A stretch of 45,904 nt of DNA from Escherichia phage vB_EcoS_PTXU06. The notes under the pieces were generated by a model. The model was given only the letters and a program-made list of their open reading frames with translations, ran no database searches and was not told the DNA's origin. Of this stretch, positions 1 to 45,904 are shown piece after piece (within the stretch, counting starts at the first letter, position 1; every line of letters begins with the position of its first letter). Both the position numbers and the translations under genes were made by a program. The stretch lies in the sequence record NC_073064.1; one strand, 5' to 3'.

Positions 1-44
1 CAGCAGATAGCGATCAACTTTTTCATGCGCGTGATTAATATTGG

Positions 45-73
45 TTGCATTCAGCCCAGCACCCGGCTATATT
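45..73 (+). promoter_or_regulatory. candidate sigma70-like promoter (-35 TTGCAT 45-50, 17-bp spacer, -10 TATATT 68-73)
   Basis: Hexamers read directly; the -35 is embedded in the recurring ATTGGTTGCAT motif (40-50); lies upstream of the first ORF at 102. Confidence 0.35.
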
Positions 74-101
74 GGTCGCACACCGACATGAGGACTGAAC
101 G

Positions 102-407
102 ATGAGAGCATTAATCTGGAATTACACAATGTCTGTGGCTAAGCTGTACGAAGCAAAACACACAAACGGCAACGCAGACGACGCGCGCCAGGCTGTCATC
201 CTGGCCCAGCAGGGAATCATGAACGCGTTAGACAATATGTTTGCCAGCCTGGACGAACTGGAGCCGCTGCGCGTGGCAATCTGCGAATATGCGATGGCAT
301 TTGCCCGTGAGCGCCTGGCTTATCGCTTCGGAATCGGCGAGACGGCAGTGACAAACGTCGCCAGGATTAAATCCCAGCGCGAACTATTCGCCCAGCTTGC
401 TAAATAA
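102..407 (+). CDS. hypothetical protein
   Basis: 101-aa ORF downstream of the candidate promoter; no recognisable motif. Confidence 0.5.
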   Translation: MRALIWNYTMSVAKLYEAKHTNGNADDARQAVILAQQGIMNALDNMFASLDELEPLRVAICEYAMAFARERLAYRFGIGETAVTNVARIKSQRELFAQLAK

Positions 408-416
408 GGGGTCAAA

Positions 417-686
417 ATGGGGCGTAGACGAGCAAAACAGCTTTCGTGGCGTATCCCACTGCATTGCATACGAATATGGGCTAAGAATGCGAATGCGGGG
501 GATTCTGTGTACTGGTGCTATCGCGACGACGTAAAGCCGTTGACGCAGACTCGCTACTTGCACCAGTTCGCAGCACAACACGATTTCAGGGTGCGGACTT
601 CCTTGCAACCAATGGGGATCCGTATTACATTACGCCGGAAGCCCGCCATTGAGCGGGTAGGCAAACACTGGAGACTGAGCAAATGA
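417..686 (+). CDS. hypothetical protein
   Basis: 89-aa ORF; AAGGGG Shine-Dalgarno-like sequence just upstream of the ATG; tightly packed with neighbours. Confidence 0.45.
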   Translation: MGRRRAKQLSWRIPLHCIRIWAKNANAGDSVYWCYRDDVKPLTQTRYLHQFAAQHDFRVRTSLQPMGIRITLRRKPAIERVGKHWRLSK

Positions 687-835
687 CACCAATGCAAAGA
701 GCACTAATGGCGGGATTCTCGCAGAAGTTTATTTCAGTAGACGCCTGCATAGCTGATTATGAGATGGACAGCATCGCTACGGTATGCGATGGCGACTATA
801 AGACTGTTGACGAGATTGAGGAGACTGAGCAATGA
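683..835 (+). CDS. small hypothetical protein (50 aa)
   Basis: Below the ORF-track cutoff; ATGA stop/start overlap with both the upstream (686) and downstream (832) genes suggests translational coupling. Confidence 0.3.
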   Translation: MTPMQRALMAGFSQKFISVDACIADYEMDSIATVCDGDYKTVDEIEETEQ

Positions 836-1386
836 GATTACTATTCCGCCGCAAATCAGACGGGCGCATACTGAAGCCGATCCAGACCCTGGATTCCTAC
901 GTCCGCTTGCACCACGCGGCAAGCGATCGGGTATTCCGCGCATCGAAGGGCACATTGCCGCAGTTCTTCGAAGTCCTCACACACGATATCGAGCGGGGCG
1001 ATGTTCTGCGTGATATTCGCGACGGGCAATTGTGGGTCGTGGAGCACACCCACCGGCACGGCTTGCGGTTGAAGTCCGGAATCTTGCTAAAGGGTATGAC
1101 GTACTTCGGGCTAATCAACTACGAGCGCGTGGGCCGCAAATACAGCCTTCGCGAACGCCATCCGCATGAGCGCGTTGAGTTCCGCAAGTCACAGCCAGCC
1201 TATGCGACCTACGACGCGAGCAAAGTGATGGACCCGGTCCGCCAGGCGACGCATGAGATTATTAATCGCTTCGATGCCGTGACGAACGCACAGCGCCATG
1301 CGCAGGAATACGGCGTTGGATTCATCCGTGTCGAACCAGACGGCAGCATGAATGCCATCGACCCGCGCTCGGTGATTCTGAAATGA
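832..1386 (+). CDS. hypothetical protein
   Basis: 184-aa ORF in the same-strand gene train; no recognisable motif. Confidence 0.55.
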   Translation: MRLLFRRKSDGRILKPIQTLDSYVRLHHAASDRVFRASKGTLPQFFEVLTHDIERGDVLRDIRDGQLWVVEHTHRHGLRLKSGILLKGMTYFGLINYERVGRKYSLRERHPHERVEFRKSQPAYATYDASKVMDPVRQATHEIINRFDAVTNAQRHAQEYGVGFIRVEPDGSMNAIDPRSVILK

Positions 1387-1523
1387 GTGCGTCTATCCGT
1401 GATATGCTGATGCACAACCGCTTTGAGATCGGCGGTCGGGTGTTTCGCAATTACTTCGTGGCGCGTGCCTGGGCGCGCCATATTGGCAAACCAGAGGGGG
1501 CAATACGATGCTACACGATTTGA
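1383..1523 (+). CDS. small hypothetical protein (46 aa)
   Basis: ATGA overlap with the preceding gene fills an otherwise empty 120-bp gap; weak support. Confidence 0.2.
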   Translation: MSASIRDMLMHNRFEIGGRVFRNYFVARAWARHIGKPEGAIRCYTI

Positions 1524-1795
1524 TATATTGGTTTGGATTGGCCAGTTGGCTATGCTTGGTCACGGCAGGGCTTGGCGCGATATGGGTATTCCTGCTTTGG
1601 CCCGCGGTAGAAGCCGCCAGCATTACCCGCATGACGTTCCAGATATACAAGCGCCGTGGCATCACTGAGCACCCTACCAGGTTGCGCATGTGGTGGCTAT
1701 GGTATCGGGATATGATAGGGGGCAGGATGTTCGAGGCCGTCAGGTCGAGTGGATGGGAGTGGAAAGGCGTCGGCAAGTGGTCCATTTTCGATTAA
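1508..1795 (+). CDS. small membrane protein
   Basis: 95 aa; strong RBS (AGAGGGGG) 7 nt upstream; hydrophobic N-terminal segment (WFGLASWLCLVTAGLGAIWVFLLW). Confidence 0.5.
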   Translation: MLHDLIYWFGLASWLCLVTAGLGAIWVFLLWPAVEAASITRMTFQIYKRRGITEHPTRLRMWWLWYRDMIGGRMFEAVRSSGWEWKGVGKWSIFD

Positions 1796-1812
1796 GTATG
1801 CAAGCGTGATAT

Positions 1813-1847
1813 AGTCCCAGTGAGATAAAACTTACTGGGACTTTTTT
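1813..1847 (+). terminator. rho-independent terminator
   Basis: Inverted repeat AGTCCCAGT / ACTGGGACT followed by TTTTTT. Confidence 0.55.
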
Positions 1848-2138
1848 ATGGATAAGCTAAACGAGTGGTTATTCGCCCTTGCGTGTCTGGCGGGCGGCTT
1901 CGTAGGCGCGCGCATTCACGGCGAGGCTACGAAAGGGCCGCTAAACTTCGTTTTATATATCGTAGTTGGCTTCCTGTGTGCCATATTTGGTGCGCCAGCT
2001 ATCGCCGAGTGGGCGGGCTTATCGGGCGAGCGCACTGTCGCCGGTTTGGGCTTCGTAACTGCAATCTTCTGGATGCCAATAGCCGCCCGGATCAGGGAGA
2101 CTATTGAGTCGTTCCGACTTCCGGGGGGCGCAAAATGA
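1848..2138 (+). CDS. putative holin (multi-TM membrane protein)
   Basis: 96 aa with 2-3 hydrophobic helices; two genes upstream of a lysozyme. Confidence 0.45.
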   Translation: MDKLNEWLFALACLAGGFVGARIHGEATKGPLNFVLYIVVGFLCAIFGAPAIAEWAGLSGERTVAGLGFVTAIFWMPIAARIRETIESFRLPGGAK

Positions 2139-2380
2139 TTATCTCCGTCCTGTTGTTTGTTATCATTGGGGCTTCGTCCCTGTTTAACGTGTATGCGCCG
2201 TCCGTCCAGGATGGCATTTTAGGCCGGGTGTTATATCTGCTAACGGCGATGATCTGCGTTATCGGATTGTTGCAAACGGGAGACGTATCAGACACCACCT
2301 GGACCGCGTTAATCTGGCTGTTTGCATTGCGCACGCTGCGTAATGCTGTTTTGAATGGGGTAAAACATGCGATTCAGTGA
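2135..2380 (+). CDS. small membrane protein (holin/antiholin-like)
   Basis: 81 aa, three hydrophobic segments; ATGA-coupled to the upstream gene; directly precedes the lysozyme. Confidence 0.4.
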   Translation: MIISVLLFVIIGASSLFNVYAPSVQDGILGRVLYLLTAMICVIGLLQTGDVSDTTWTALIWLFALRTLRNAVLNGVKHAIQ

Positions 2381-2858
2381 CAACGGTCTAAGATTTACGG
2401 CAGCATGGGAGCAATTCAGCCCAGTGCCGTATTTCGCGACTAAGAAAGAGCAGGCCCGCGGCCTGTATACCTGGGGCTATGGTCACACCGGCACTAATCC
2501 GCCGCGGAGCATTACCCGTGCGGAAGCACTGGAGCTACTCAAGCGCGACGTGGCGTATGCCGAAAACTGGGTGAACAAGTACGCACACCCGAGCATCAAT
2601 CAGGCGCAATTCGACGCGCTGGTGGACCTGGTTATCAATGCTGGTCCAGGTCCGATCATGCCGGACGACGTCGCGGGTGATTTCGACGATGCGATCCGCC
2701 TGGGTGACTGGGCGAAGGTCCGTGCTATTCTGCCACAGTTCCGCAAGCAAGGCGGGGAAGTGCTTAAGGGACTTGTCCGTCGAGCAATAGGCAGGCAAGC
2801 GCTATTCGATGGAAAGCAGTGGGACGTCGCCGAGAAGATCGGACGTAACGCAGCATAA
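2367..2858 (+). CDS. endolysin, lysozyme (GH24 / T4-lysozyme-like fold)
   Basis: 163 aa; WEQF...TWGYGHTG arrangement resembles the catalytic Glu and downstream TxGxGH region of phage lysozymes. Confidence 0.7.
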   Translation: MRFSDNGLRFTAAWEQFSPVPYFATKKEQARGLYTWGYGHTGTNPPRSITRAEALELLKRDVAYAENWVNKYAHPSINQAQFDALVDLVINAGPGPIMPDDVAGDFDDAIRLGDWAKVRAILPQFRKQGGEVLKGLVRRAIGRQALFDGKQWDVAEKIGRNAA

Positions 2859-2874
2859 TACGAGGGGACACAGT

Positions 2875-3288
2875 ATGTTAAAAAGTATTCTTGATCATAA
2901 CGCCGACGCGCTCGCCGCGCTGGCTAAAACCGAAGACCCCGGCGCACGCGCGATTGTAGCGGATACGATCAGCCATGCGGGGGTCTTCGACGCGAAGCTG
3001 CCTCGCCCGCCGGAAAGTAAGCCGGTGACAAGCGCCACCGTAACCATCACACCGGAATCCGCCGCAGTTGGTGCGAAGGCCACCGCTTCGGTTGAGGTCC
3101 AGCCACCCGACGCGACTAACAAGGCCGGGAAGTGGGTGTCGTCGAATCCCGCCTGCGCGGCAATCGATCAGACTACCGGCGAAATCACAGCCCAAACGGC
3201 GGGTAGCGCCCACATCTTTTGGGTGGCCTCAGATGGTAGCGGGGCGATGGCGTCCGCCATCTTCACCGTAACGGGGGCGGAAGAATAA
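2875..3288 (+). CDS. Ig-like (Big_2-type) domain protein
   Basis: Start taken at the ATG with GAGGGG RBS (the track ORF begins at 2809 inside the lysozyme); sequence TVTITPESAAVGAKATASVEV...WVSSNPACAAIDQTTGEITAQTAGSAHIFW resembles bacterial Ig-like group 2 domains. Confidence 0.45.
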   Translation: MLKSILDHNADALAALAKTEDPGARAIVADTISHAGVFDAKLPRPPESKPVTSATVTITPESAAVGAKATASVEVQPPDATNKAGKWVSSNPACAAIDQTTGEITAQTAGSAHIFWVASDGSGAMASAIFTVTGAEE

Positions 3289-3324: not shown

Positions 3325-3354
3325 TTGACTTGCAACCAACATAGAGGCCATACT
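3325..3354 (+). promoter_or_regulatory. candidate promoter (-35 TTGACT, 18-bp spacer, -10 CATACT) abutting a TGCAACCAA motif
   Basis: Read directly; sits between the terminator and the next gene block. Confidence 0.3.
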
Positions 3355-3384
3355 GCGACCAATCAACGAGAGGAGTATTACACT

Positions 3385-3465
3385 ATGGCACGTAATGATA
3401 TTTGGGTATTGGCAATCTGGTCCGCCGCGGGATTTATCGGTATGGTTATTTGCGAATTGCTATAA
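3385..3465 (+). CDS. small hydrophobic peptide (26 aa)
   Basis: Strong AGAGGAG RBS about 8 nt upstream of the ATG; peptide MARNDIWVLAIWSAAGFIGMVICELL is mostly one hydrophobic helix; below the ORF-track cutoff. Confidence 0.25.
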   Translation: MARNDIWVLAIWSAAGFIGMVICELL

Positions 3466-3517
3466 CCCGCCGCAATAGGGACCGTGGTATATTGTCCTCG
3501 GTCCCATAATCAGGAAG

Positions 3518-4669
3518 TTGATTAATATGCACCCGCAAACTAAAATCACCGACGAGCAATTGATCGCCGAGTTGCAATCCGGCACTACCGCGAAAGAGAT
3601 TGCGAAGAAGTACGGCCTTTCCCTACGAAACGTCTACATGCGCAAAGCCCGCCTGTCGAAGAAAGGTATTGGTCACGGCAACGATGCCGTAATCCGTAAG
3701 CGCGTTGCCGATGGCTTCGGCGTTAAGCGCGTATCCGCCCTGGTACGCGGCAATGGCGAAGAGGTCATGTCGTGGGTTATCACTGAGCAGGACAAAGAGC
3801 GCCAGCTTGAAGCAATGCGCGCCGTTGTCGATGGTATGAACAGCGAAATCACACCGGCAGCACCCGTAAGCGCCCCGCCAGTCCCGATCCAGGCGCTCGA
3901 CCTGCTCAACCTGTACACCGTGTCCGACTTCCACCTGGGCATGTTGGCCTGGGGCGAGGAGACTGGCGAAGACTGGGATATGGCGATTGCCGAAGACCTG
4001 TTCTACCGCTGGTTTGTCGAAGCCTTCGCACGCGCACCGGACGCAGGCACTGCCGTAATTAATATCCTCGGTGATATGGCACACTTTGATAGCCTCGATG
4101 CCGTCACACCTGCCAGCGGTCACGTACTGGACGCGGATACCCGCTACCAGAAGCTGGTCCGCTACATGATTCGCATGGTGCGCAACGTGGTGGAACTGGC
4201 GCTGCAAAAACACCACAAAGTCAAACTGCTAATCGTCCAGGGGAATCATGATGAGTCGGGCATGATTTGGCTGGCTGAAATGTTCAATACTCTGTACGAG
4301 AACGAGCCACGCGTCGAGGTGGACACATCCCCAGATGTGTACAAAATGGTGCAGCACGGTAAAACAACGCTGTTCTTCCACCACGGGCACAAAGCACGTT
4401 TTGACGCTATTGAAACCGTCATGATTTCCAAATTCAGACAAGCGTTCGGATCCAGCGAGTACAGCTACGCGCATGTAGGCCACTTGCACCACCAGAAGAT
4501 TGTAGAATCCCGCAACATGATTGTTGAACAGCACCGGACCCTCGCCGCGAAAGACGCATATGCCAGCCGCGGCGGTTGGATGTCCGGTCGTAGCGCCAAC
4601 GTAATCACCTATAGCGCCAACTACGGCGAAGTAGCGCGCTTAACCATTAGCCTGGAAATGTTGAAATGA
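3518..4669 (+). CDS. HTH domain + calcineurin-like metallophosphoesterase
   Basis: N-terminal HTH-like segment (TAKEIAKKYGLSLRNVYMRKARL); ordered phosphoesterase motifs DFH, GDMAHFD, GNHDE, HHGH, GHLHH. Confidence 0.6.
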   Translation: MINMHPQTKITDEQLIAELQSGTTAKEIAKKYGLSLRNVYMRKARLSKKGIGHGNDAVIRKRVADGFGVKRVSALVRGNGEEVMSWVITEQDKERQLEAMRAVVDGMNSEITPAAPVSAPPVPIQALDLLNLYTVSDFHLGMLAWGEETGEDWDMAIAEDLFYRWFVEAFARAPDAGTAVINILGDMAHFDSLDAVTPASGHVLDADTRYQKLVRYMIRMVRNVVELALQKHHKVKLLIVQGNHDESGMIWLAEMFNTLYENEPRVEVDTSPDVYKMVQHGKTTLFFHHGHKARFDAIETVMISKFRQAFGSSEYSYAHVGHLHHQKIVESRNMIVEQHRTLAAKDAYASRGGWMSGRSANVITYSANYGEVARLTISLEMLK

Positions 4670-4923
4670 TTAGACAAGTATTCATGAGCACGCAGGCCGC
4701 ACGCCTGAAAGAACTACGCAAACAACTGGAAGGATTGCGTCGATTCGAACGAACGGCAGCGGCAATCGGCATGTCTATCAGCGAGCGGATCGAGATACTA
4801 TCGCAAATACGCTACACAGAAGGCGCTATACGCGAAGTAGAAAGCATGTTAACCGATACTACGGTCGCGCCGTTTAACCCTCCTAGCCTGCCGATTTGGT
4901 GGGCTTTTTTGTGCCTGTTATAA
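4666..4923 (+). CDS. hypothetical protein
   Basis: 85 aa; ATGA overlap with the upstream gene. Confidence 0.45.
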   Translation: MIRQVFMSTQAARLKELRKQLEGLRRFERTAAAIGMSISERIEILSQIRYTEGAIREVESMLTDTTVAPFNPPSLPIWWAFLCLL

Positions 4924-4993
4924 TCCCCTTAGATGGCAGGGCCGTCTCCTATGTTGCCGATGGTCGGCGCATATGCACAAAAGGGCTTATATC

Positions 4994-5545
4994 ATGGCAG
5001 AAATTAAAGTTAAAGGCCGTCGCGCTAAACTGGACGGACGAGTAGCAGTTACCCCGCGCCGTAAACCAGGCGAGCAAACCGAGCATACCAATCTCGGACC
5101 TGAAATCGAGTACGGAAAGCGCCGTAAAGGCGGCAAATGTGGACGCCCTACTGACTACCGATCCGTTTACTGCGACCAGCTTCGCCGCTATTTTGCCGAC
5201 GCCGACGCCTGGCAGGTAAACTACTCCGATAAAGGCGCTGCGCAAGTAATCCCCCGCAACAAAATGCCAACCTTCGGTCGATTTGCCGCGGAAATCGGCG
5301 TGGGCGTAGCTTGCCTGTATCGCTGGGCGCGTGCGCATGAGGAGTTCGCCGAGGCGATGGCGGACGCTATGGAGTTGCAGAAAACTTTCCTGATGGAAGC
5401 TGGCGGCGTGACCATCGCGGCGGGCTTCGCTACCTTCCTGCTTAAAGCCAACCACGGCGTCCGGGACGACGTACCGCTGGATGACGACGAAGATGATAAC
5501 GGCGACGTCGTTGTGGAACCTACCGGCAAAGGCCAGGGTGATTAA
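4994..5545 (+). CDS. putative terminase small subunit
   Basis: Immediately upstream of and overlapping the large terminase; basic N-terminus; start at 4994 has the better RBS (track start 4973). Confidence 0.5.
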   Translation: MAEIKVKGRRAKLDGRVAVTPRRKPGEQTEHTNLGPEIEYGKRRKGGKCGRPTDYRSVYCDQLRRYFADADAWQVNYSDKGAAQVIPRNKMPTFGRFAAEIGVGVACLYRWARAHEEFAEAMADAMELQKTFLMEAGGVTIAAGFATFLLKANHGVRDDVPLDDDEDDNGDVVVEPTGKGQGD

Positions 5546-6930
5546 TGCGTAACTATGCGGCAGAACATCGCGCCCTTGAACGAGCGATCGCAAAGCGAAA
5601 CCGACCGCCGCGCCCGACACGCGTTGCGCAGGCCGTCCGCCTTTACCAGCCTGATTGCTTGCCGCACCAGGTTGAACTACTGCGCGACACGAAGACTAAA
5701 ATCCTCGGCCTGTGTTCCGGCTTCGGTGGCGGCAAGTCATGGGTTGCGGCGCGAAAGGTCATCCAGCTTTTAACACTGAACCCCGGTCATGATGGCATCG
5801 TGACAGAACCGACTATTCCACTTCTGGTCAAAATCATGTACCCGGAATTGGAAAAGGCATTCGACGAGGCGGGCTTCCGGTGGAAGTTCAATAAGCAGGA
5901 CAAGATTTATAGCGTGCTGGTGAAAGGCAAGTGGACGCGCGTAATCTGTGAGTCAATGGAGAACTACACCCGCCTTATCGGGGTTAACGCCGCATGGATT
6001 GTTGCCGACGAGTTCGACACCACGAAACAAGACGTCGCAATGGCGGCATATCACAAATTGCTTGGTCGTCTGCGTGCGGGCTTTGTCCGCCAGTTCGTCA
6101 TCGTGTCCACGCCTGAAGGCTTCCGGGCGATGTACCAGATTTTCGAAGTGGAGAAAGACAGCCAGAAGCGTTTGATCCGGGCGAAGACTACCGATAATCA
6201 CCACTTACCGGCAGACTTTATTGACACGCTGCGCAGCCAGTACCCGGCTAACCTGATTGACGCGTACTTGAACGGCCTGTTTGTAAACCTTACGTCTGGC
6301 GCGGTTTACAAGATGTTCAATCGTGAGGAGAACGCCAGCACCGAAGAAGTGCAACCGGACGACACGCTGATTATCGGTATGGACTTTAACGTCACGAAAA
6401 TGGCGGCGGTTGTGTACGTCAGACGGCAGCGCATCACCGAGAACAAGGAGTTCCGCGACGAGATCCACGCAGTGGATGAATTTGTGGACCTGTTTGATAC
6501 CCCGGCTATGATTGAGGCGATCGAGGAGCGCTACCCCGATCATTGTGCTGCCGGTAGGGTCGTCGTTTACCCGGATAGCAGCGGAAAATCCCGCAAAACG
6601 GTCAACGCGTCGTCGTCCGATATCGCGCAACTGGAAGATGCGGGCTTTGAGGTGGAATACGACAGCGTTAACCCGCCTGTGAAAGATCGATTGATCGCGA
6701 TGAATACGATGATGTGCAACTCGAAGGGCGTGCGCCAGTATTTTGTCAACCTGGATAAATGCCCTACACTAGCGAAATGTCTGGAACAGCAGGTTTACGA
6801 CCTGAAGAAAGGCGAGCCGGATAAAACCGCCGGTGTGGACCACATGAACGATGCCGCGGGCTATCCAATTGCGCACCTGTTCCCAGTGATTCGCCCAATC
6901 GCCGTTGTTCCAACTGTAGACTTCTACTAA
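5545..6930 (+). CDS. terminase large subunit
   Basis: 461 aa; P-loop GFGGGKS, Walker-B-like WIVADEFD, C-terminal nuclease-like acidic residues; followed by portal. Confidence 0.85.
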   Translation: MRNYAAEHRALERAIAKRNRPPRPTRVAQAVRLYQPDCLPHQVELLRDTKTKILGLCSGFGGGKSWVAARKVIQLLTLNPGHDGIVTEPTIPLLVKIMYPELEKAFDEAGFRWKFNKQDKIYSVLVKGKWTRVICESMENYTRLIGVNAAWIVADEFDTTKQDVAMAAYHKLLGRLRAGFVRQFVIVSTPEGFRAMYQIFEVEKDSQKRLIRAKTTDNHHLPADFIDTLRSQYPANLIDAYLNGLFVNLTSGAVYKMFNREENASTEEVQPDDTLIIGMDFNVTKMAAVVYVRRQRITENKEFRDEIHAVDEFVDLFDTPAMIEAIEERYPDHCAAGRVVVYPDSSGKSRKTVNASSSDIAQLEDAGFEVEYDSVNPPVKDRLIAMNTMMCNSKGVRQYFVNLDKCPTLAKCLEQQVYDLKKGEPDKTAGVDHMNDAAGYPIAHLFPVIRPIAVVPTVDFY

Positions 6931-6940
6931 GGAAACGACC

Positions 6941-35703: not shown

Positions 35704-35716
35704 CGTCATGTCTCCC

Positions 35717-35739: not shown

Positions 35740-35746
35740 GTATTAA

Positions 35747-35920: not shown

Positions 35921-35951
35921 CTCTAAAATCCTCGATATGGCTAACCGGCAC

Positions 35952-35980
35952 ACTATACCGCTATGCGACCAATTCAGCAA
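35952..35980 (-). promoter_or_regulatory. candidate promoter (-35 TTGCTG, 17-bp spacer, -10 TATAGT) with ATTGGT-type motif variants
   Basis: Read directly on the minus strand; motif variants at 35963-35973 and 35977-35985. Confidence 0.3.
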
Positions 35981-36239: not shown

Positions 36240-36270
36240 AATCTTATTCCCGTCAAAAGCAACATTTCCG

Positions 36271-38562: not shown

Positions 38563-38729
38563 TGCTTTATCCTCACTACGGCGTCAGCGCTGCCGATCAT
38601 GGAGAAGATGCCGTCGGACAGGGCGATTTCTTCGCCGTTGTTGCGAATCTCGGCAACTGTGAAATATTCCCCCAGTAGCTTGGACCATACTTGCATTCCG
38701 ACTTTTACTTCGCTGGCTTTAATACGCAT
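38559..38729 (-). CDS. small hypothetical protein (56 aa)
   Basis: Stop overlaps the polymerase ATG (ATGA); below the ORF-track cutoff. Confidence 0.3.
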   Translation of the reverse strand: MRIKASEVKVGMQVWSKLLGEYFTVAEIRNNGEEIALSDGIFSMIGSADAVVRIKQ

Positions 38730-38744
38730 TTTTCATTGTCCTAT

Positions 38745-38768
38745 TAAAAAGCCCGCATTAAGCGGGCT
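38745..38768 (-). terminator. rho-independent terminator (minus strand)
   Basis: AGCCCGC-TTAAT-GCGGGCT hairpin followed by TTTTT on the minus strand. Confidence 0.55.
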
Positions 38769-38787
38769 TGAATAGTGGGCTTTGCCC

Positions 38788-39573
38788 TTAACGGCGGCGA
38801 CGTTTACGTGGTGCTTCGTCTTCGTCGTCTTCGTCCTCATCTTCGTCATCGCGGGACTTGCGGCGTTTGCGAGGTTTTTCATCTTCGTCTTCGTCGTCGT
38901 CATCGCGGCGCTTGGATTTCTTGGACTTGCGCGGCTTGTCATCTTCATCATCGTCATCACGACGTTTTGACTTCTTAGCCTTGCGCGGTGCTTCGTCTTC
39001 GTCGTCGTTGTCCAGGTCTTCATCGGAGCAAGAAGACCCGCCACCGCCGAAGGATTCACCGTCATCACGGAAGCGTAAACCCAGCAAGCCAGCACCGAGT
39101 CCCTTGCCGTTGGTGTTGTTCCACGCCCAAATATCAAGGGACACGTTGCAATAACAACCGGAGTAGATCTCCTGGCCTTCAATCTCGTCGCCGTCGATGG
39201 TCAGACCCTGTTCAGTCTGCTTCTCGCCGAGTGACGTTTGAATGATAGGCTGTTTGAACGATTTGGCGTTGATGTACAACATGCCTTCGAATTCTTCGGT
39301 AACTTCGTCGCGCTCGTCACCGTCGCGAACTGCACATTCCTTAGAATCCTGGGCATAGTGGCGGTCCATCCACTTATCGGCATTCTTCTCGGATTTCAGC
39401 TTGTCGGTGAGCACTGCGCGTGCTGCCGCTTCCACTTTGTCCACCTGCGGATCTTCTTTATCCAGAAGAATCACGGCACGGTATGCCGGTTTTTGCCCAT
39501 CCTGTTTAGGGGTATCACGTTCCCAAATTTTCAGGAAGCATACGCGCACATTTTTCAGGTTGACTTTAGCCAT
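38788..39573 (-). CDS. putative ssDNA-binding protein (DUF2815-like) with repetitive mixed-charge C-terminal tail
   Basis: Start at ATG 39573 with GAGGA RBS (MAKVNLKNVRVCF...); three tandem RRDDDDEDE-KPRK-KKSK repeats at the C-terminus. Confidence 0.45.
   Translation of the reverse strand: MAKVNLKNVRVCFLKIWERDTPKQDGQKPAYRAVILLDKEDPQVDKVEAAARAVLTDKLKSEKNADKWMDRHYAQDSKECAVRDGDERDEVTEEFEGMLYINAKSFKQPIIQTSLGEKQTEQGLTIDGDEIEGQEIYSGCYCNVSLDIWAWNNTNGKGLGAGLLGLRFRDDGESFGGGGSSCSDEDLDNDDEDEAPRKAKKSKRRDDDDEDDKPRKSKKSKRRDDDDEDEDEKPRKRRKSRDDEDEDEDDEDEAPRKRRRR
38820..39010. repeat. about 3 tandem ~60-bp coding repeats
   Basis: Repeated CTTCGTCGTC...CATCGCGGCGCTTG...CTTGCGCGG units read directly. Confidence 0.6.
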
Positions 39574-39663
39574 TTTCCAATTCCTCATTTTCACATGTAT
39601 CGGGGTAATTGGAAGCCACCCCGTTCGGCTTGGTTGCCAATTTACTTGGTTGCGCCTGAGCGG

Positions 39664-39906
39664 TCAAGCATTTTCATTAAAAAGATTTCTGGTAACGTAG
39701 TTGGTAGCGTTCTCGATCCAGCTTAATGGCGGGCGGTCGCCATGTCTCGCGATCCACGCCACGGCAATGGTGCTGTATCCATCGTCCAGCCATTGGGTCG
39801 GATGTCGAATCATCCACGCCACCATTAACACGCCTTGCACACAATGCAGGATAAAACCCAGCGCGCCGAGCAAAAACATCAATAAGATTGCGAATACTTT
39901 ATTCAT
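39664..39906 (-). CDS. small membrane protein
   Basis: 80 aa; N-terminal TM helix (VFAILLMFLLGALGFIL). Confidence 0.45.
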   Translation of the reverse strand: MNKVFAILLMFLLGALGFILHCVQGVLMVAWMIRHPTQWLDDGYSTIAVAWIARHGDRPPLSWIENATNYVTRNLFNENA

Positions 39907-41329
39907 TGCTTAAATCCTCGTCAGTAGCTTCTGACCACGCAGGGCGCGGGTCGTCAATGGGTGCTAATACAGGTTTAGCCGGTGCGCGTGTGATTTTATC
40001 ACACAGCTTCGCCCATACTTTCGGTTTCTCGTCCTTCAGCACCTTCTCGGCATCCGTAGGACTGAGTAATGTTTCTTTGTACATAACATCGCGCTTGATC
40101 CGGGCCTTCGTGAAGATCTCAATCACTTCGCTTTCGTCCGCCCACTTGCGGATCCCTTCCTTACCGGCAACCATTTTGAGGCCCAGCGATTCGCCATCGC
40201 CAGCCATAACCGCCTTGAATACCGCGGACTCGATAGCCTTGATGTGCTGGCGCATTGCGTCTAAACCTTCATACGCCTTGCGCAGTTCCGCGGCAGTCAT
40301 AGCGCCGGAGGCCGCTTCTTTCTTGCCACGCTTCGCACGTCGTGCCGCTTTGCGGGCTTCGCGGGCCATATTGCGGTCATGATTGGCGCATTCTTCCTCT
40401 GTCGCAATACTCACGTCGTCGCCCAGGTCTTCGTCTGTTGCCGTTGGTGGGGTCATCGTGTCGATTGCAGCCTTAGCGCGGGCGCTACACTGGTCCGCAA
40501 ATCTGCACCACTGACACGCATCAACGCTCGGTCGGAAGTCGGCACGGGTGAGTCCCTTTTTGCCGCGGGCGTACGCTTCCAGGGCGGCGATAGCACGCTT
40601 GGACGCAAACTTCGCGAATATCTCCAGGGCTTCTACCGAAATATCCCACTCCGACGCCCCGCCGCAATACGGCTGGAAGATAACCAGGCGCACGGTCGTG
40701 ATGTCGTACATGGATTGCAGCTTGCGCAGCAGGCCGAGCGCATACAGCATAAGCTGTTTGTTTTCTTTCGCCTCGACCTTATGCCGCCCCGTCTTCAGGT
40801 CGCCAACAATCAGCATGTACGTGCCGTCGGTCTTCTTCATGACCATGACCATATCCGCAGTGCCGAACGTCTTAACCCGGTTGCCGTCGATCTCGAAGCC
40901 AGAGTGTAGGACGCGGGTGAGATCGGCGCGCATCTCAAGCTGAACAAACTCCGCCACTTCGAGGAGCGGTCGCCAGTGGTCGATGTACGCGTCGCACTGT
41001 TTCACCATGTCGTCGTTGACCAGTACGCCGCCTTTCGGTGCTTTCGGGTGCGCCTTTACCGGCCCCTTACCTTCGTTCTCGACGTAGCACCCTTTGTACG
41101 TTTTCGCGGTTATCAGCTTCTCACCGGCAATAATGCGGTTTAGCACGACTTCCGATACTGTGTGCATACTCGTACCGTTAATAGCCGCTTGCCCGGATTC
41201 GTTCGGGATACCCTGTTCTACCACCAGGGCGGCGGGGCAACCCATCCATTTTTTAGCACCGGATGGCCCGAGTAATGAATGTTCCGTATTACTACCGGAT
41301 TGTGTTTTGCGCTTCGGTTTAATCGCCAT
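39899..41329 (-). CDS. PD-(D/E)xK nuclease, Cas4/RecB-like with Cys cluster (DUF2800-like)
   Basis: 476 aa; N-terminal HSLLGPSGAKKWMGCP; C-terminal cysteine cluster C...CQWCRFADQC. Confidence 0.55.
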   Translation of the reverse strand: MAIKPKRKTQSGSNTEHSLLGPSGAKKWMGCPAALVVEQGIPNESGQAAINGTSMHTVSEVVLNRIIAGEKLITAKTYKGCYVENEGKGPVKAHPKAPKGGVLVNDDMVKQCDAYIDHWRPLLEVAEFVQLEMRADLTRVLHSGFEIDGNRVKTFGTADMVMVMKKTDGTYMLIVGDLKTGRHKVEAKENKQLMLYALGLLRKLQSMYDITTVRLVIFQPYCGGASEWDISVEALEIFAKFASKRAIAALEAYARGKKGLTRADFRPSVDACQWCRFADQCSARAKAAIDTMTPPTATDEDLGDDVSIATEEECANHDRNMAREARKAARRAKRGKKEAASGAMTAAELRKAYEGLDAMRQHIKAIESAVFKAVMAGDGESLGLKMVAGKEGIRKWADESEVIEIFTKARIKRDVMYKETLLSPTDAEKVLKDEKPKVWAKLCDKITRAPAKPVLAPIDDPRPAWSEATDEDLSNE

Positions 41330-41517
41330 TATTCCACCCTTGAAAATTGAGCAATGTAATAATCGTGTTCAACATTGGCCCGCTTCGCGGCATTGTTCAT
41401 GGTAGCCGCCAGTCCTCGAGCTTGCATCCAGCAGCAATTCCAGTTTTGATTCATAACAATTTCTGGTTGCTCGTCGCCGGTAATACGGCAACGAAATAAA
41501 ACAAAGAATATAGCCAT
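41329..41517 (-). CDS. hypothetical protein
   Basis: 62-aa ORF in the same-strand gene train. Confidence 0.35.
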   Translation of the reverse strand: MAIFFVLFRCRITGDEQPEIVMNQNWNCCWMQARGLAATMNNAAKRANVEHDYYIAQFSRVE

Positions 41518-41769
41518 TTATTTTGTCTCCCAGCGGTCAATTGTTTTTGCTTCGGATGCAACTGCGAAGCGAACATATTCCAGATTGGAATCCGCCCAAA
41601 TATAAAAGTCGGGGTTAGTAAAGGTGGTGCGCTTAATTTGCGCGGGGGTGTTACGGCGTTTATCTATTACGGCAACGCGTGACTGAAAGCTGCCGATGCG
41701 TTCGAATAGCCAATAGTACGGGCGCTGGTCGCGGGAGTCCACCGCCTCGATTAGCGTGAAGCGTGCCAT
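41518..41769 (-). CDS. hypothetical protein
   Basis: 83-aa ORF. Confidence 0.45.
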   Translation of the reverse strand: MARFTLIEAVDSRDQRPYYWLFERIGSFQSRVAVIDKRRNTPAQIKRTTFTNPDFYIWADSNLEYVRFAVASEAKTIDRWETK

Positions 41770-41782
41770 TGTCTCGTCCTCT

Positions 41783-41809
41783 AAAAATAGGCCCGCAGAT
41801 TAGCGGGCC
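41783..41809 (-). terminator. rho-independent terminator (minus strand)
   Basis: GGCCCGC-TAATCT-GCGGGCC hairpin followed by TATTTTT on the minus strand. Confidence 0.55.
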
Positions 41810-41817
41810 GGAATATA

Positions 41818-41943
41818 TTAATCTTCACCGCCGAGTTGTCTATAAACCTCGTCCGGGTCGTCGCCTCTTTCTTCGCAGAAGGCGGTGAACGCCGCCCAAT
41901 TTTCTGCTATGAAATCGAGCATGATTCTCATTTCATAGTCCAT
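41818..41943 (-). CDS. small acidic hypothetical protein (41 aa)
   Basis: Below the ORF-track cutoff; starts 5 nt after the upstream gene's stop. Confidence 0.25.
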   Translation of the reverse strand: MDYEMRIMLDFIAENWAAFTAFCEERGDDPDEVYRQLGGED

Positions 41944-41947
41944 GATA

Positions 41948-42463
41948 TTAATCTTCCAGTTCGAAATAGGTTTCGACGATTTCTTTTAGCTCTTTGTGGA
42001 AGTCTTCGACGTCGTCATCTTCCAGCTTGGCGATTGATTTGATCTCGAACGATTCCAGCAGGTCGTCGAATTCGTCGTTCGCATCGTCGTCATCACCACC
42101 GGCGATAATCGCGGCATACTGTTTGATTTCGTCGCGCATCTCCGCCAGCGGATCGGCATCTTTCTTACCTTTGCCTTTCGCCGGTGCTTTCTTAGACTTA
42201 GCCGGTTTTTCGTCTTCGGCATCGTCGTCGTCATCTTCTACGACTTCTTTTTTAGCCTTACCTTTCGCCGGTGCTTTTTTAGCTTTAGCCGGTTTTTCGT
42301 CTTCGGCGTCATCGTCGTCATCTTCGACAACTTCTTTTTTGGCCTTAGACGGCTTCTTGTCTTCCTGTTTACCAACGGCAGCGCCAACGGTTTCATAATG
42401 CTTTGCAATGGTTTCCAGTGCTACTACGCCGCGAGTGATCAGGTTTACGATTTGCTCAAACAT
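41948..42463 (-). CDS. acidic repeat protein (possible early protein)
   Basis: Start at ATG 42463 with GGAGA RBS; two tandem ~32-aa Lys/Ala- and Asp/Glu-rich repeats; very acidic C-terminus; first gene downstream of a strong candidate promoter. Confidence 0.5.
   Translation of the reverse strand: MFEQIVNLITRGVVALETIAKHYETVGAAVGKQEDKKPSKAKKEVVEDDDDDAEDEKPAKAKKAPAKGKAKKEVVEDDDDDAEDEKPAKSKKAPAKGKGKKDADPLAEMRDEIKQYAAIIAGGDDDDANDEFDDLLESFEIKSIAKLEDDDVEDFHKELKEIVETYFELED
42167..42356. repeat. 2 tandem ~96-bp coding repeats
   Basis: Read directly; encode KKEVVEDDDDDAEDEKPAK(A/S)KKAPAKGK repeats. Confidence 0.65.
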
Positions 42464-42659: not shown

Positions 42660-42689
42660 ATATTAGATTGGTTGCATGTGGGGTGTCAA
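42660..42689 (-). promoter_or_regulatory. candidate strong promoter (-35 TTGACA, 18-bp spacer containing ATGCAACCAAT, -10 TAATAT)
   Basis: Read on the minus strand; located in the 400-bp divergent intergenic region. Confidence 0.4.
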
Positions 42690-42806
42690 CAACTAATTTC
42701 AAAAAAAAAAGCGCCGAGGCAAAATGCGACGGCGCTAACCAATAAGAGACAATGAGACGGGAATCATTATTACACGCGTGCGCGCCCGTTTCAATATCCA
42801 AAGGAT

Positions 42807-42866: not shown

Positions 42867-43196
42867 ATGAATGTAAACGACGCAATCGAAATGTTAACGA
42901 AGACTGTTAGCAGTGAAACAAGCCGGTCATGGGCTTATACCGATGCCGTTGGGGCGGTGTTATTTGAAATCGAACGACTGCGCAGTGTCGAAAAAGAATT
43001 ACGCGCCAGGCTGGAATTGCTCAACGGTACGGCAGCGAGCAAGCTGCAAAAGCACAATGAAGAAATGGAAGAATACAAAAAACAGGTTATCCGTTTGCGC
43101 GATGAGGGCAAATCTTGGGCGATGATTGCCGAGTTGACCGGAATTAATCAGAGCACAGTGCGCTCCTGGGTACGCAATAATAAAACTTCTAAGTAA
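42867..43196 (+). CDS. small DNA-binding protein with C-terminal HTH
   Basis: 109 aa; KSWAMIAELTGINQSTVRSWVRN helix-turn-helix; GAGGG RBS. Confidence 0.55.
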   Translation: MNVNDAIEMLTKTVSSETSRSWAYTDAVGAVLFEIERLRSVEKELRARLELLNGTAASKLQKHNEEMEEYKKQVIRLRDEGKSWAMIAELTGINQSTVRSWVRNNKTSK

Positions 43197-43206
43197 GGCC
43201 GCGGCA

Positions 43207-45471
43207 ATGAGCTTAATTAAATTCGCTGTAACACGACCCGCTAAAAAAGGCGAAAAAGCCAGGGCGGAAAACTTCCAGATGACTACCGAAGAGTTTTTCG
43301 AATTTATCAATGATGCGAAAGAAATATCCTCGGTGCATATCAACAAGACGGAAGATAAAGCGGAGTATGCGCGCCGCAAGCGTAAGGCCGATGGCATTGT
43401 GGCTTATACCAGTGATGGGCTGCGCCGCAAGACCAGTGCGGTGGACCGCTCGATCCTGTTCTTTGATATTGACCGCACCGACACCCGCACCCTGCGCCGC
43501 TGCCGTAAGGCGTTCATCGACGCGGGTCTGGAACACGTATTTCACACCACCACCGGCGACCGCCACCCGCTGAAGGGCGGCACGCGTTGCGCCCGTTTCC
43601 TGGTGCTCACTGACAAGCCTGTACCGGCTGAAGACCTGGGCCGCGTCCAGTATGCACTATTACACCAACTGGGTCTGTCAGATGTGGACTTCGACGATTG
43701 CACGAAAGACACAAACCGCCTGATGTACCTGCCACACCAGCAGTCCGTTATTAAGTGCCACTATGGCAAGCGCGCCAATGTGCGTCGACTACTCCGTCTG
43801 GCGGACAAGCTGGGGGTGGAAAAAGAGGAAGTACGCCGCGAGCTTACCCAGGGCGACGACGCAGTGGCAGACGGCATTCTGGACTGGTGCTTCCAGGCAG
43901 GATTCGAGGAGTTATCTTCCGGTCGCGGTTATGAAGTGCCGTGCCCGAACGAACATCTGCACAGCGGCGAAGGGTCGACGGCTATCATGGTCAAGGATGG
44001 CGAGATCCGTTTCAAGTGTATGCACACCGGCAACGAGTGTTGCTCGGAGCTAAATAGACACCAGCACCTTGCGCTACGTCTTATCGGGATACCGGACCAC
44101 CTGAACGTCGAGCCGCACAACATGTCCCGTAAGCAAATCGCCGCCATCCTTCCGGGACTGGACGACGAGGAAGTCGAATCCTTATATGAACATATTGTTG
44201 ATGCGGTTGGCGACGGCGAAGAATACGGCGTGTGCACCGATGCGGATCTGGATAACGAGCCGGTTGCGCTGTTCAGCAAGCACGACCCGATTATCGAGGG
44301 GTTGGTTAACTTTAAATCAACCTGGTATATGGCGGGTGAGTCGAACATCGGTAAGTCTTTCTACGTGCTGGGGCAAATGGGTGCGGTTGCCGCGGGGATT
44401 CCGTTCGGTGGCGCGAAGGTCGTCCAGTCCCATTGCTTCTATTTCGACGCGGAAGGTGGCGAAGCCTCCAACCAGCGTAAGGAAGCATTGCAGATCAAAT
44501 ATGAGCACGACCTGGACAAGCTGCACATTATTGACCTGCAATCACGCGGCTGGGATATCACCAGCAAGTCGGGCTTGCGCGAAGTTATCAGCTTTATAAA
44601 CCGCACCGCTAACGGCGAACCGGTTGGCCTGGTAGCTTTCGACTCACTCAACCAGACTGTTGCGCTGCGGTCCGCCGATGCTAAACCGTTTGACGAGAAC
44701 AACGCCAGCGATATGGGTGAAGTGGTCAAGGCGCTGAAGGCCATTGCGGAAAATACAGGCGGCAGTGCGGGCGTCATCCACCACCCGGCTAAAGGTGCAA
44801 ACGGAAGCAGATCCCCCCGCGGGTCCGGCGCGCTGCATGGCGCTGTCGATTCTGCGTTCTTCCTGGAACAGCCGGACGACAACCAGCCGGGACAACTTAA
44901 CCTGTATCACGAAAAGGCACGTAACGGCATCAAGCAAGCGCCGCGCGGCTTCGTCCTGCTCAAGTGCAAGGTTAAGGTGGATCTCCGCAAGTCCGAGGCG
45001 TTCGAAGCCCACCAGTCCACCAGCACCGGGCCGGACTTCGGTGATGTGGTCGCCGGTTGGGACGTCAAGCCGATTGCCTCCACGCCTCGCGACGAGACTC
45101 TGTACCTCGTACCGGTCGCCCTGGCACCGTTCGCCATCGAACAGGCGAAGGCCGCGGGCAAGGCAGCAGTTAAGGAAGAGAACGCCGCGGGACCGCGCAA
45201 CGAAAAAGAGAAAGTGCTTTATGCGGCACTGGAAAAACTGATGGAAGATAACCCGGACCATACCGGATTCAGTAAATCGGCAATTGTCCGCCAGGCTGGG
45301 CTTGCGAAAGGTGGCACATCGACGAAGGCAATCGACGATATGGTCGAGCGCGGCGTACTCGGTTTTTACACAGACCCACACACCGGGGCCATCTATGGGT
45401 CGTCGAATATCGTCATCAAAACGAATATACCCATCACGCTTTCGGCGACAGATGACGACTTAAAAGATTAA
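43207..45471 (+). CDS. primase-helicase (N-terminal primase-like domain, C-terminal P-loop helicase-like domain)
   Basis: 754 aa; central Cys/His cluster (CPNEHLHSGEG...CMHTGNECC); Walker A GESNIGKS and Walker-B-like LVAFDSLNQT. Confidence 0.75.
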   Translation: MSLIKFAVTRPAKKGEKARAENFQMTTEEFFEFINDAKEISSVHINKTEDKAEYARRKRKADGIVAYTSDGLRRKTSAVDRSILFFDIDRTDTRTLRRCRKAFIDAGLEHVFHTTTGDRHPLKGGTRCARFLVLTDKPVPAEDLGRVQYALLHQLGLSDVDFDDCTKDTNRLMYLPHQQSVIKCHYGKRANVRRLLRLADKLGVEKEEVRRELTQGDDAVADGILDWCFQAGFEELSSGRGYEVPCPNEHLHSGEGSTAIMVKDGEIRFKCMHTGNECCSELNRHQHLALRLIGIPDHLNVEPHNMSRKQIAAILPGLDDEEVESLYEHIVDAVGDGEEYGVCTDADLDNEPVALFSKHDPIIEGLVNFKSTWYMAGESNIGKSFYVLGQMGAVAAGIPFGGAKVVQSHCFYFDAEGGEASNQRKEALQIKYEHDLDKLHIIDLQSRGWDITSKSGLREVISFINRTANGEPVGLVAFDSLNQTVALRSADAKPFDENNASDMGEVVKALKAIAENTGGSAGVIHHPAKGANGSRSPRGSGALHGAVDSAFFLEQPDDNQPGQLNLYHEKARNGIKQAPRGFVLLKCKVKVDLRKSEAFEAHQSTSTGPDFGDVVAGWDVKPIASTPRDETLYLVPVALAPFAIEQAKAAGKAAVKEENAAGPRNEKEKVLYAALEKLMEDNPDHTGFSKSAIVRQAGLAKGGTSTKAIDDMVERGVLGFYTDPHTGAIYGSSNIVIKTNIPITLSATDDDLKD

Positions 45472-45546
45472 ATTTTGCGCGCATTGGTTGCCGATATGGG
45501 AATTCCCATATCGCCAAAAGATTAAATTTTGCGCGCATTGGTTGCC
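45462..45546. repeat. two 31-bp direct repeats flanking a perfect 20-bp palindrome
   Basis: AAAAGATTAAATTTTGCGCGCATTGGTTGCC at 45462-45492 and 45516-45546; GATATGGGAATTCCCATATC at 45493-45512. Confidence 0.85.
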
Positions 45547-45605
45547 ATTTTGGGTGTTTTTATCCGGTCGTATTGGTTGCCGTGTAATGTAAATATAGTG
45601 AATAG

Positions 45606-45790
45606 TTATGCAGTTTTATTGCATAAACTAAGCGGGACAAAAAGCGGGACAGCCAAGGGGCGGGACAAAGCGGGACAGCACCCCCGTCCCGCCCCGGATG
45701 GCGCGGCCTAGAGAGGAGCGGGACAGCGGGACAGCACCCCAGTCTTTCAGACTAGACGGGGGTCAACGGCCCCCCTCGTCTGAGACTGCA
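45606..45790. repeat. iteron cluster B: about 8 GCGGGACA boxes plus a long imperfect palindrome
   Basis: Roughly 85% identical by eye to 16967-17150, with small indels. Confidence 0.8.
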
Positions 45791-45904
45791 TAAAATCCGG
45801 GGATTGCAAAATACACGGCAGCATGATGCGAAGTGCGGTCGCGGATGAACTAGGCAACCAATGCGAGTTGTATTATGCGGAGTGAAAAACGCGGTTTGCA
45901 GATT

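Follow-up and report, generated by a model that had tools for sequence, protein, structure and literature searches.

A recurrent asymmetric 10-mer in the predicted core promoters of a Dhillonvirus as a candidate phage-wide operator

Dhillonviruses are common phages of Escherichia coli that are represented in the BASEL collection, in phage-defence studies and among therapy candidates, and to our knowledge their transcription programme is essentially uncharacterised. The stretch of DNA analysed here (the window; 45,904 bp, NC_073064.1, Escherichia phage vB_EcoS_PTXU06) is the complete genome of a Dhillonvirus, i.e., an HK578-like siphophage of E. coli. An initial annotation had noticed that a short motif, ATTGGTTGCA, recurs at its operon boundaries, and had proposed that the motif often supplies a -35 hexamer and may be an operator for a phage-encoded helix-turn-helix (HTH) protein. 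What this 10-mer does, and which protein would read it, is the question addressed here; full-text literature searches returned no description of the motif or of Dhillonvirus promoters. Judged from sequence comparison, there is about an even chance that the ATTGGTTGCA sites are genome-wide operators for a phage-encoded protein that acts mainly by repression, and that is most likely the HTH protein encoded at 42867-43196.

The genome contains nine exact copies of ATTGGTTGCA and 20 copies at no more than one mismatch, against 3.27 +/- 1.77 (maximum 9) expected from 100 dinucleotide-preserving shuffles, none of which reached 20, and the exact TTGGTTGCA was observed 11 times against 0.44 expected. 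Intergenic DNA makes up 8.1% of the genome and wholly contains 16 of the 20 close matches (binomial p ~4e-13), and three further copies occupy the final bases of a coding sequence (CDS) at an operon boundary. Among intergenic 8-mers, TTGGTTGC shows the strongest enrichment, 17 of the 20 copies in the genome being intergenic. The shuffles and the intergenic bias exclude chance or base composition as the source of the motif, and structured RNA or tRNA as its identity is ruled out by the absence of Rfam and tRNA matches. The consensus derived from 21 sites is A-T-T-G-G-T-T/c-G-C-A/c, with approximately 16 bits confined to exactly 10 positions; positions 2-6, 8 and 9 are invariant, positions 1, 7 and 10 are low in information, and the flanks are essentially without information. 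The ATTGG half is conserved as strongly as the TTGCA half, and the motif is a sharply bounded, asymmetric site. The operon-boundary placement described in the initial annotation is borne out by this genome-wide scan, and each of the coordinates listed there carries a copy or a variant of the motif; two inverted copies, at 604-613 and 3354-3363, had been missed. A single copy lies deep inside a gene, probably by chance:

21890-21899 (-): ATTGGTTGCC, inside the CDS 21284-22024; GTTGGTTGCC in relatives.

Eleven sigma-70-like core promoters contain 17 of the sites, which occur in both orientations and at varied positions. Promoter positions were read from flanking sequence, consensus scans and explicit hexamer searches, and all of the promoters are predicted. 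Promoters and sites are given below in genome order, with identity among orthologues for a number of the sites.

45-73 (+): promoter P1, TTGCAT-17-TATATT, driving the operon from 102.
40-49 (+): ATTGGTTGCA, of which TTGCAT (45-50) is the -35 of P1; 16/19 orthologues identical.
71-80 (+): ATTGGTCGCA, ATTGGTTGCA in 19/20 relatives; its first three bases are the last three of the P1 -10 (TATATTGGTYGCACACC).
603-631 (+): promoter TTGCAA-17-TACATT, upstream of the gene at 683.
604-613 (-): inverted copy, palindromic TTGCAA (603-608) being the -35; 15/15 orthologues identical.
3325-3354 (+): promoter P3325, TTGACT-18-CATACT, driving the HTH-phosphoesterase, terminase and portal operon.
3331-3340 (-): GTTGGTTGCA, inverted, right after the -35 of P3325.
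3354-3363 (-): ATTGGTCGCA, inverted, from the final base of the P3325 -10 into +1.
11277-11248 (-, leftward): promoter P11277, TTGCAA-18-TATATT.
11241-11250 (-): copy over the -10/+1 of P11277, in the same TATATTGGTTGCACACCAAC module as P1.
11255-11264 (-): copy in the P11277 spacer, 1 nt upstream of the -10.
27290-27263 (-, leftward): promoter TTGCAT-16-TAATAC, for the genes 27231-26075.
27286-27295 (-): single copy, aligned with the -35; 12/12 orthologues identical.
30307-30278 (-, leftward): promoter P30307, TTGCAA-18-TATAGT.
30285-30294 (-): GTTGGTTGCA, in the P30307 spacer, 1 nt upstream of the -10 TATAGT.
30297-30306 (+): inverted partner of 30285, palindromic TTGCAA being the P30307 -35.
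31980-31952 (-, leftward): promoter P31985, TTGCAT-17-TATATT.
31959-31968 (-): copy in the P31985 spacer, 1 nt upstream of the -10.
31976-31985 (-): copy aligned with the P31985 -35.
35980-35952 (-, leftward): promoter P35985, TTGCTG-17-TATAGT.
35964-35973 (-): ATTGGTCGCA, in the P35985 spacer.
35976-35985 (-): ATTGGTTGCT, aligned with the P35985 -35.
39667-39639 (-, leftward): promoter P39667, TTGACC-17-TAAATT.
39629-39638 (+): CTTGGTTGCC variant (2 mismatches), inverted, just downstream of the P39667 -10, about -6 to +4.
39645-39654 (+): CTTGGTTGCG variant (2 mismatches), inverted, in the P39667 spacer and abutting the -10; 14/15 orthologues identical.
42672-42699 (+, rightward): promoter TTGCAT-16-TAATTT, driving the HTH gene and helicase-primase gene, with its -35 from the 42667 site.
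42689-42660 (-, leftward): promoter P42689, TTGACA-18-TAATAT, for the long replication-gene operon.
42667-42676 (+): single copy common to the two preceding, overlapping divergent promoters, lying in the spacer of P42689.

Paired sites are found in most of these promoters, 12, 14, 16, 17, 23 or 31 bp apart. Typically, one member of the pair coincides with or adjoins the -35, and its partner either comes to within 0-1 nt of the -10 from inside the spacer or spans -10/+1. Sites coincide with the -35 in forward orientation (ATTGG upstream) at 40, 27286, 31976, 35976 and 42667, and in inverted orientation, via palindromic TTGCAA, at 604 and 30297. Sites 11255, 30285, 31959 and, inverted, 42667 stop 1 nt short of the -10 (of P11277, P30307, P31985 and P42689, respectively), inverted 39645 abuts the -10, and 35964 and inverted 3331 lie elsewhere in the spacer. 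The region from -10 to +1 is spanned by the module TATATTGGTTGCACACC at 71 (P1) and 11241 (P11277), and by inverted copies at 3354 and 39629. As had been noticed at the outset, orientation is mixed: relative to local transcription 14 sites are forward and seven reverse, and 30285 (-) and 30297 (+) constitute an inverted pair.

The notion that the motif often supplies a -35 hexamer holds for part of the sites. A sigma-70 arrangement, with a TTGACA-like hexamer 16-18 bp upstream of a TATAAT-like one, fits seven of the 21 sites when relaxed -10 hexamers, and palindromic TTGCAA read on the other strand, are allowed; the other 14 sites do not supply a -35. Likewise, the proposed placement of TTGCAT or TTGCAA at 17-18 bp from a TATA-like hexamer is found at some sites, but a strict TAnnnT at 16-18 bp accompanies only three of the 11 motif TTGCA copies, against eight of 123 other TTGCA occurrences, a marginal association (Fisher p = 0.048). 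The -35 role of the motif appears incidental, and the spacer, -10/+1, inverted and non-promoter positions rule out that it is merely a -35 hexamer. It is decidedly unlikely that the motif is instead a phage-specific promoter element, i.e., an extended or alternative -35 that host RNA polymerase reads alone or with the help of a phage co-activator, in the manner of the T4 MotA box, rather than a repressor operator. Such a role would agree with the seven sites whose TTGCAx or TTGCAA precedes a -10-like hexamer by 16-18 bp, with the presence of the motif in almost every predicted promoter outside the structural operon, and with the score of the 42867 protein for the Pfam model Sigma70_r4_2 (27.0 bits; cut-off 25.7), which describes the sigma domain responsible for -35 recognition. 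Against it stand the position of most sites, in spacers, over -10/+1, inverted in promoters with a good TTGACx, or in a non-promoter cluster at 45483-45862, the marginal association with a strict -10, and the conservation of ATTGG, which equals that of TTGCA although ATTGG would lie outside the -35 hexamer. Sigma-54 geometry is also absent: the pattern TGGCAC-N5-TTGCA (GG-N10-GC) gave 13 matches at up to two mismatches against 15.5 expected and was rejected, it touches a single motif site (a 2-mismatch match at 42673-42688 over the P42689 -35), and the GG and GC within the motif are 2 nt apart, not in the GG-N10-GC arrangement.

Conservation in related phages, one of the checks named in the initial annotation, agrees with a functional site. 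In seven of seven Dhillonvirus genomes, including Sodalis phage SO-1 and CHD5UKE2, ATTGGTTGC is the most or second most frequent 9-mer, and each of these genomes holds 15-20 copies at no more than one mismatch. Alignment of ten regulatory regions revealed the 10-mers as fixed blocks between which adjacent spacers drift, as seen in the spacer of P1 (17 bp) and in the 7 bp that separate copies 31959 and 31976. In comparisons that drew on as many as 20 orthologues for a site, identity was 97.0% in the motif columns and 89.5% in the 25 + 25 flanking columns (Mann-Whitney p = 5e-11), and substitutions within sites are restricted to positions 1, 7 and 10. Conserved 10-mers amid drifting flanks are good evidence of function. 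Among relatives the spacing of the pair 11241/11255 is either 13 or 14 bp, and in phage JL1 the copy at 11255 is deleted.

The asymmetry of the site, its occurrence in either orientation and at irregular spacing, its position at polymerase contacts and the conservation of ATTGG point to an operator. The irregular pair spacings, 12-31 bp in the window and 13 versus 14 bp among relatives, argue for independently placed asymmetric sites. Since the promoters look competent unaided (TTGCAT/TATATT at 17 bp; TTGACA/TAATAT at 18 bp) and many sites cover -10/+1, occlusion is the most economical interpretation, and the motif appears to behave as an operator for a binder of asymmetric sites, most likely a promoter-occluding repressor. 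The bound protein would occupy the place of RNA polymerase on the promoter, and the repressor may in this way silence early, replication and accessory operons or exert feedback on them; the site at 42667 would extend this control to the operon that encodes it. No copy of the motif lies in the core of the promoter predicted for the main structural operon (TTGCGA-16-TAATAT, 11285-11312), which fits a regulator of early, replication and accessory units. The spacer of this structural promoter contains a perfectly conserved inverted repeat, GCGATTATTTTTATCGC, with no ATTGGTTGCA; it may be a separate late-gene control site.

Two phage proteins had been named as candidate binders. The first is encoded in the operon of the replicative helicase-primase:

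42867-43196 (+): candidate binder 1, 109 amino acids (aa); long helix from residue 23 to 79, then a three-helix HTH at the C-terminus; its gene immediately precedes that of the helicase-primase.
43207-45471 (+): replicative helicase-primase, in the same operon.

Besides Sigma70_r4_2, the 109-aa protein matches the Pfam models HTH_23 and HTH_28, and Pfam scans of 30 of the 63 phage proteins, comprising most of the small uncharacterised ones, detected no HTH other than in this protein and in the HTH-phosphoesterase discussed below. Its family was found only in Dhillonvirus-like phages (153 phage records; 33 clusters), in which the N-terminal half diverges to 34% identity and the HTH (SW..IAE.TGIN.ST.R.W) is invariant, paralleling the invariant motif. 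Its gene is preceded by a promoter bearing a motif site and abuts the helicase-primase gene, beyond whose stop codon a group of GCC-ending motif variants, described below, is found. An AlphaFold2 model (pLDDT 82) gives a 57-residue helix running into the three-helix HTH, a predicted shape that fits a coiled-coil dimer with two heads; such a dimer, with loosely tethered HTH heads, could reach paired sites of varied spacing and orientation. The 42867 protein appears to fit the site distribution best, with the HTH-phosphoesterase as a live rival. The operator idea of the initial annotation is the best-supported reading in view of asymmetry, orientation, promoter position and footprint, and neither of the binders named there is established.

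Several observations weigh against a repressor operator read by the 42867 protein. All of the promoters are consensus-based predictions only, and at the seven sites that give a usable -35 an activating or recruiting role is possible. A fold search with the 42867 protein retrieved generic HTH folds only, at E ~1 (LuxR, resolvase, sigma-4), and a sequence search of the Protein Data Bank (PDB) gave no more than generic HTH similarity. The co-distribution of this protein with the motif is confounded, both being genus-wide, and the same HTH occurs in every family member, leaving no variant for co-variation. Moreover, an otherwise unrelated metagenomic lineage (L034/L111, also recovered as L127, together with L135) has a ATTGGTTGCA cluster and no detectable 42867 homologue in 21 kb, and this four-site cluster lies ~260 bp beyond the 3' end of a homologue (34% identity) of the second candidate:

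3527-4669 (+): candidate binder 2, 380 aa, an N-terminal HTH and a calcineurin-like metallophosphoesterase with intact metal-binding motifs.

It is possible, though rather unlikely, that this HTH-metallophosphoesterase is the binder, and that it represses the promoters or acts enzymatically at the sites. In the metagenomic lineage, which was encountered in a tandem-motif scan of viral contigs, the cluster consists of two exact ATTGGTTGCA 14 bp apart, followed by TGTCACCAAT and CTTGGCGGCA, and ATTGGTNNCA has five matches in L127 against 0.67 expected. The phosphoesterase homologue is the sole window protein matched in the 21 kb besides a marginal terminase match (E = 0.005), and the cluster is partly kept in a relative with an 85%-identical phosphoesterase. 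In addition, the phosphoesterase is preceded in the window by its own promoter P3325 with two sites, and its catalytic metal-binding motifs are intact. The homologue in Salmonella phage Jersey, however, is 76% identical, yet Jersey has zero ATTGGTNNCA and no comparable recurrent intergenic motif, its top intergenic k-mers being terminator stems. Homologues without the motif near the gene are also carried by L130, L131, L132, L134 and L136, and among the contigs L127, L130-132 and L134-136 and phage Jersey, the motif is found only in the L127/L135 lineage. The recognition helix of the window protein (SLRNVYMR) is less like that of L127 (STRSVERC) than like that of Jersey (SRRNVQLR), the opposite of what shared specificity predicts. 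Furthermore, the phosphoesterase family has more than 3800 members across many phage types, against a motif regulon in one genus, and a PDB sequence search with this protein found no solved homologue. On balance the 42867 protein was weighted above the phosphoesterase, a choice that leaves the L127 cluster unexplained.

A variant of the phosphoesterase proposal, improbable on the sequence evidence, is that the 10-mer is an address label of the enzyme, which would act as a sequence-directed phosphoesterase or nuclease at promoters and in the origin-proximal region, where it might place site-specific nicks or process DNA ends. If so, a modular system of site plus enzyme, recurring in L034/L127/L135, would take the place of a plain repressor and its operators.

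The conserved cluster of this lineage (L127, 11464-11520; L135, 1960-2060), ATTGGTTGCA(x2)-TGTCACCAAT-CTTGGCGGCA, includes the palindrome ATTGGTGTCACCAAT and adjoins a convergent gene pair encoding the HTH-metallophosphoesterase and a small acidic protein. This palindrome, ATTGGT-N3-ACCAAT, matches the E. coli PdhR box, and would suit a host transcription factor, e.g., a GntR/PdhR-like protein with ATTGGT half-sites, as the binder; the presence of the motif in phages of E. coli, Shigella and Sodalis, as well as in an unrelated phage, points the same way, as do the window sites 71 and 11241, which read TTGGT-N5-ACCAA. The probability of a host factor is nevertheless considered low, of the order of one reading in a dozen: the window has zero TTGGT-N3-ACCAA at up to one mismatch, which rejects a PdhR-type palindrome there, the TGCA half is as conserved as ATTGG, 19 of the 21 sites are without an inverted partner, phage Jersey has zero copies in spite of its closely related Salmonella host, and a tandem-motif scan of bacterial genomes gave no Enterobacterales among the first 120 matches listed.

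Elsewhere, the viral-contig scan returned mostly 9-bp coding repeats, (ATTGGTTGC)n, which are irrelevant here, and non-coding arrays on contigs L100, L037 and L076 showed no tie to any window protein. The array on L100, an IMG/VR contig, is dense and non-coding (2700-3190), with 10 ATTGGTTGCA copies at no more than one mismatch and many more GGTTGCATCC units, either way round; downstream of it is an open reading frame (ORF) with a generic HTH (…MIQKMYGIGRQALRGLI…) that is not detectably related to either window candidate. A tandem ATTGGTTGCA pattern is also present on more than 20 contigs of the Anaerolineales metagenome-assembled genome bin100123 (L172-L192), and suggests an unrelated dispersed repeat element.

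Outside promoter context, four variants of the motif end in GCC and have a longer common flank, CGCATTGGTTGCC; they are identical in nearly all relatives and follow the helicase-primase gene:

45483-45492 (+): first direct copy (CGCATTGGTTGCC), 12 bp past the helicase-primase stop, in a 39-nt direct repeat.
45537-45546 (+): second direct copy, 54 bp from the first.
45572-45581 (+): third direct copy, 35 bp further; 20/20 orthologues identical.
45853-45862 (-): inverted copy (GGCAACCAATGCG), beyond the GCGGGACA block; 20/20 orthologues identical.

These variants bracket a block of an unrelated repeat, GCGGGACA, that is duplicated before the tape-measure gene, and both places are annotated as repeat regions A and B in the GenBank record of SO-1. 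That the motif is mainly a replication-origin or packaging iteron, with its presence in promoters secondary, seems highly improbable. The four CGCATTGGTTGCC-flanked copies do lie in a repeat-rich region after the helicase-primase gene, the 'region B' of SO-1, and the window and several deposited genomes begin near this region. Yet 17 of the 21 sites are spread over 43 kb and precisely placed in core promoters, and the dominant repeat of the origin-like regions is a different one, GCGGGACA. The tandem, regular spacing of ~20-23 bp that characterises iterons is not seen either, the copies in the cluster being an irregular 54 and 35 bp apart and the inverted copy 271 bp away. Under the preferred operator reading, the cluster might add a second, replication-linked role for the binder, like DnaA boxes at oriC and promoters.

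Two further repeat features were observed. Both 16847-17100 and 45627-45745 contain ~8-10 copies of a repeat family (A)AGCGGGACA(G) that is unrelated to the motif, and the two regions share a duplicated module of ~150 bp with TATGCAGTTTTATTGCATAAA, GCGGGACA repeats and the hairpin AGACTAGACGGGGGTCARCGGYCCCCCTCGTCTGAGACT; a late-gene regulatory site and an origin are possibilities for them. The 39-nt direct repeat (AAAAGATTAAATTTTGCGCGCATTGGTTGCC...), at 45462-45554, flanks a near-palindrome, GATATGGGAATTCCCATATC, and is present in two copies in the window, BF9 and Zar3M, and in one copy in SO-1, JL1, BMA1 and CHD5UKE2.

The gene layout used throughout was taken from the coordinates of Escherichia phage vB_EcoS_Zar3M, which is collinear with the window at 94.3% identity and of which 63/63 CDS coordinates are valid ORFs in the window; function names were taken from phages BMA1 and SO-1. 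The first 12 kb of the window are matched by 162 phage records, and the phage has no recognisable lysogeny module. Its gene blocks are:

102-3288 (+): small early genes and lysis cassette.
3527-9982 (+): HTH-phosphoesterase, terminase, portal and head morphogenesis.
9996-11211 (-): two genes.
11368-26051 (+): structural genes.
26075-27231 (-): genes behind the predicted promoter at 27290.
27312-29135 (+): tail fibre.
29162-42463 (-): DNA metabolism and replication genes.
42867-45471 (+): small HTH protein and helicase-primase.

Several other features were noted. Between P3325 and the HTH-phosphoesterase gene, at 3389-3526, lies a small conserved ORF (MARNDIW...) for which a good ribosome-binding site is present; it is annotated in some relatives only (47 aa in CHD5UKE2). 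A terminator-like hairpin with a U-run (GAGGGTGTCC...GGACGCCCTTTTTT) lies at 31927-31951 (-), directly downstream of P31985; transcripts from P31985 would reach it within ~30 nt, which suggests attenuation, or a terminator serving the upstream operon. A 231-aa gene occurs in tandem duplicate at 32300-32995 and 33364-34059, with a small ORF between the copies; it is annotated as a C5 cytosine methyltransferase in relatives, and is duplicated in Zar3M too and single-copy in BMA1, SO-1 and JL1. Finally, a leftward small RNA of ~60 nt is possible at 42700-42794 (-), where a predicted TG-extended promoter, TTGAAA-17-AATAAT (42794-42766), is followed by a strong intrinsic terminator, a hairpin with U10 (42735-42700; -17 kcal/mol, z = -3.0). 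It would be antisense to the 5' leader of the HTH/helicase-primase operon, in a region that is nearly invariant in seven genomes.

If the ATTGGTTGCA sites are operators as proposed, one 10-mer marks nearly all non-structural promoters and provides a ready map of the regulatory units of the phage, and it points to a single regulator whose removal or overexpression should reprogramme the whole infection. The pair of operator and repressor would be compact and portable for engineering purposes. A virulent phage with a global promoter-occluding regulator, which perhaps also marks the origin, would moreover be a useful model for timing without an RNA polymerase of its own.

The site set can be compared with known systems, namely P1 C1, L5, DnaA, MotA and CytR. 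T4 MotA boxes occupy a fixed position at about -30. The window resembles this sigma appropriation in that a phage-specific 9-10-mer with TGC replaces the -35 at a set of promoters, and differs from it in that sites range from -40 to +4 and flip in orientation, which is neither a fixed distance nor one orientation; the 30 proteins scanned include no detectable homologue of MotA or AsiA. Operators of E. coli CytR, with the octamer GTTGCATT, share GTTGCA with the motif, and tolerate variable spacing and either orientation, whereas the invariant ATTGG lies outside the CytR octamer and the bases after GCA are not conserved (<=0.34 bit). The GntR/PdhR operator, ATTGGT-N3-ACCAAT, is absent from the window, and the palindrome occurs in the cluster of the unrelated L127/L135 lineage.

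The stoperators of mycobacteriophage L5 gp71 have a single orientation relative to transcription and block elongation. Like the window sites, they are short asymmetric sites, dozens in number, in short intergenic gaps, with one over a -35 and a small HTH protein as the binder; unlike them, the window sites are not uniform in orientation (14 forward, 7 reverse) and lie within core promoters rather than between genes. DnaA boxes are similarly asymmetric 9-10-mers read by one HTH domain, in irregular clusters of mixed orientation by replication functions and also in promoters whose transcription the same protein regulates. The window motif is, however, unrelated to TTATCCACA, neither candidate HTH is fused to a DnaA-like AAA+ domain, and the origin role of 45472-45904 is putative. 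The window site set is neither uniform in orientation, like stoperators, nor fixed in position, like MotA boxes, nor regularly spaced, like iterons, and homologues of the cognate proteins were not seen. What it does display are several properties of dispersed asymmetric operators: 21 non-palindromic sites, 16 of 20 close matches intergenic, genus-wide conservation, and 17 sites that overlap predicted core promoters. In this respect it resembles the C1 operators of phage P1, which belong to the immunity system of a temperate phage and are 17 bp long, and in which many scattered asymmetric operators lie over promoters in either orientation, sometimes paired, with one protein serving many operons. 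The window site differs from these in its length of 10 bp and in belonging to a phage without a recognisable lysogeny module, and Pfam scans of 30 window proteins gave no C1 homologue. Taken together, the sites probably constitute a phage-wide operator regulon of a known type, with a new set of sites.

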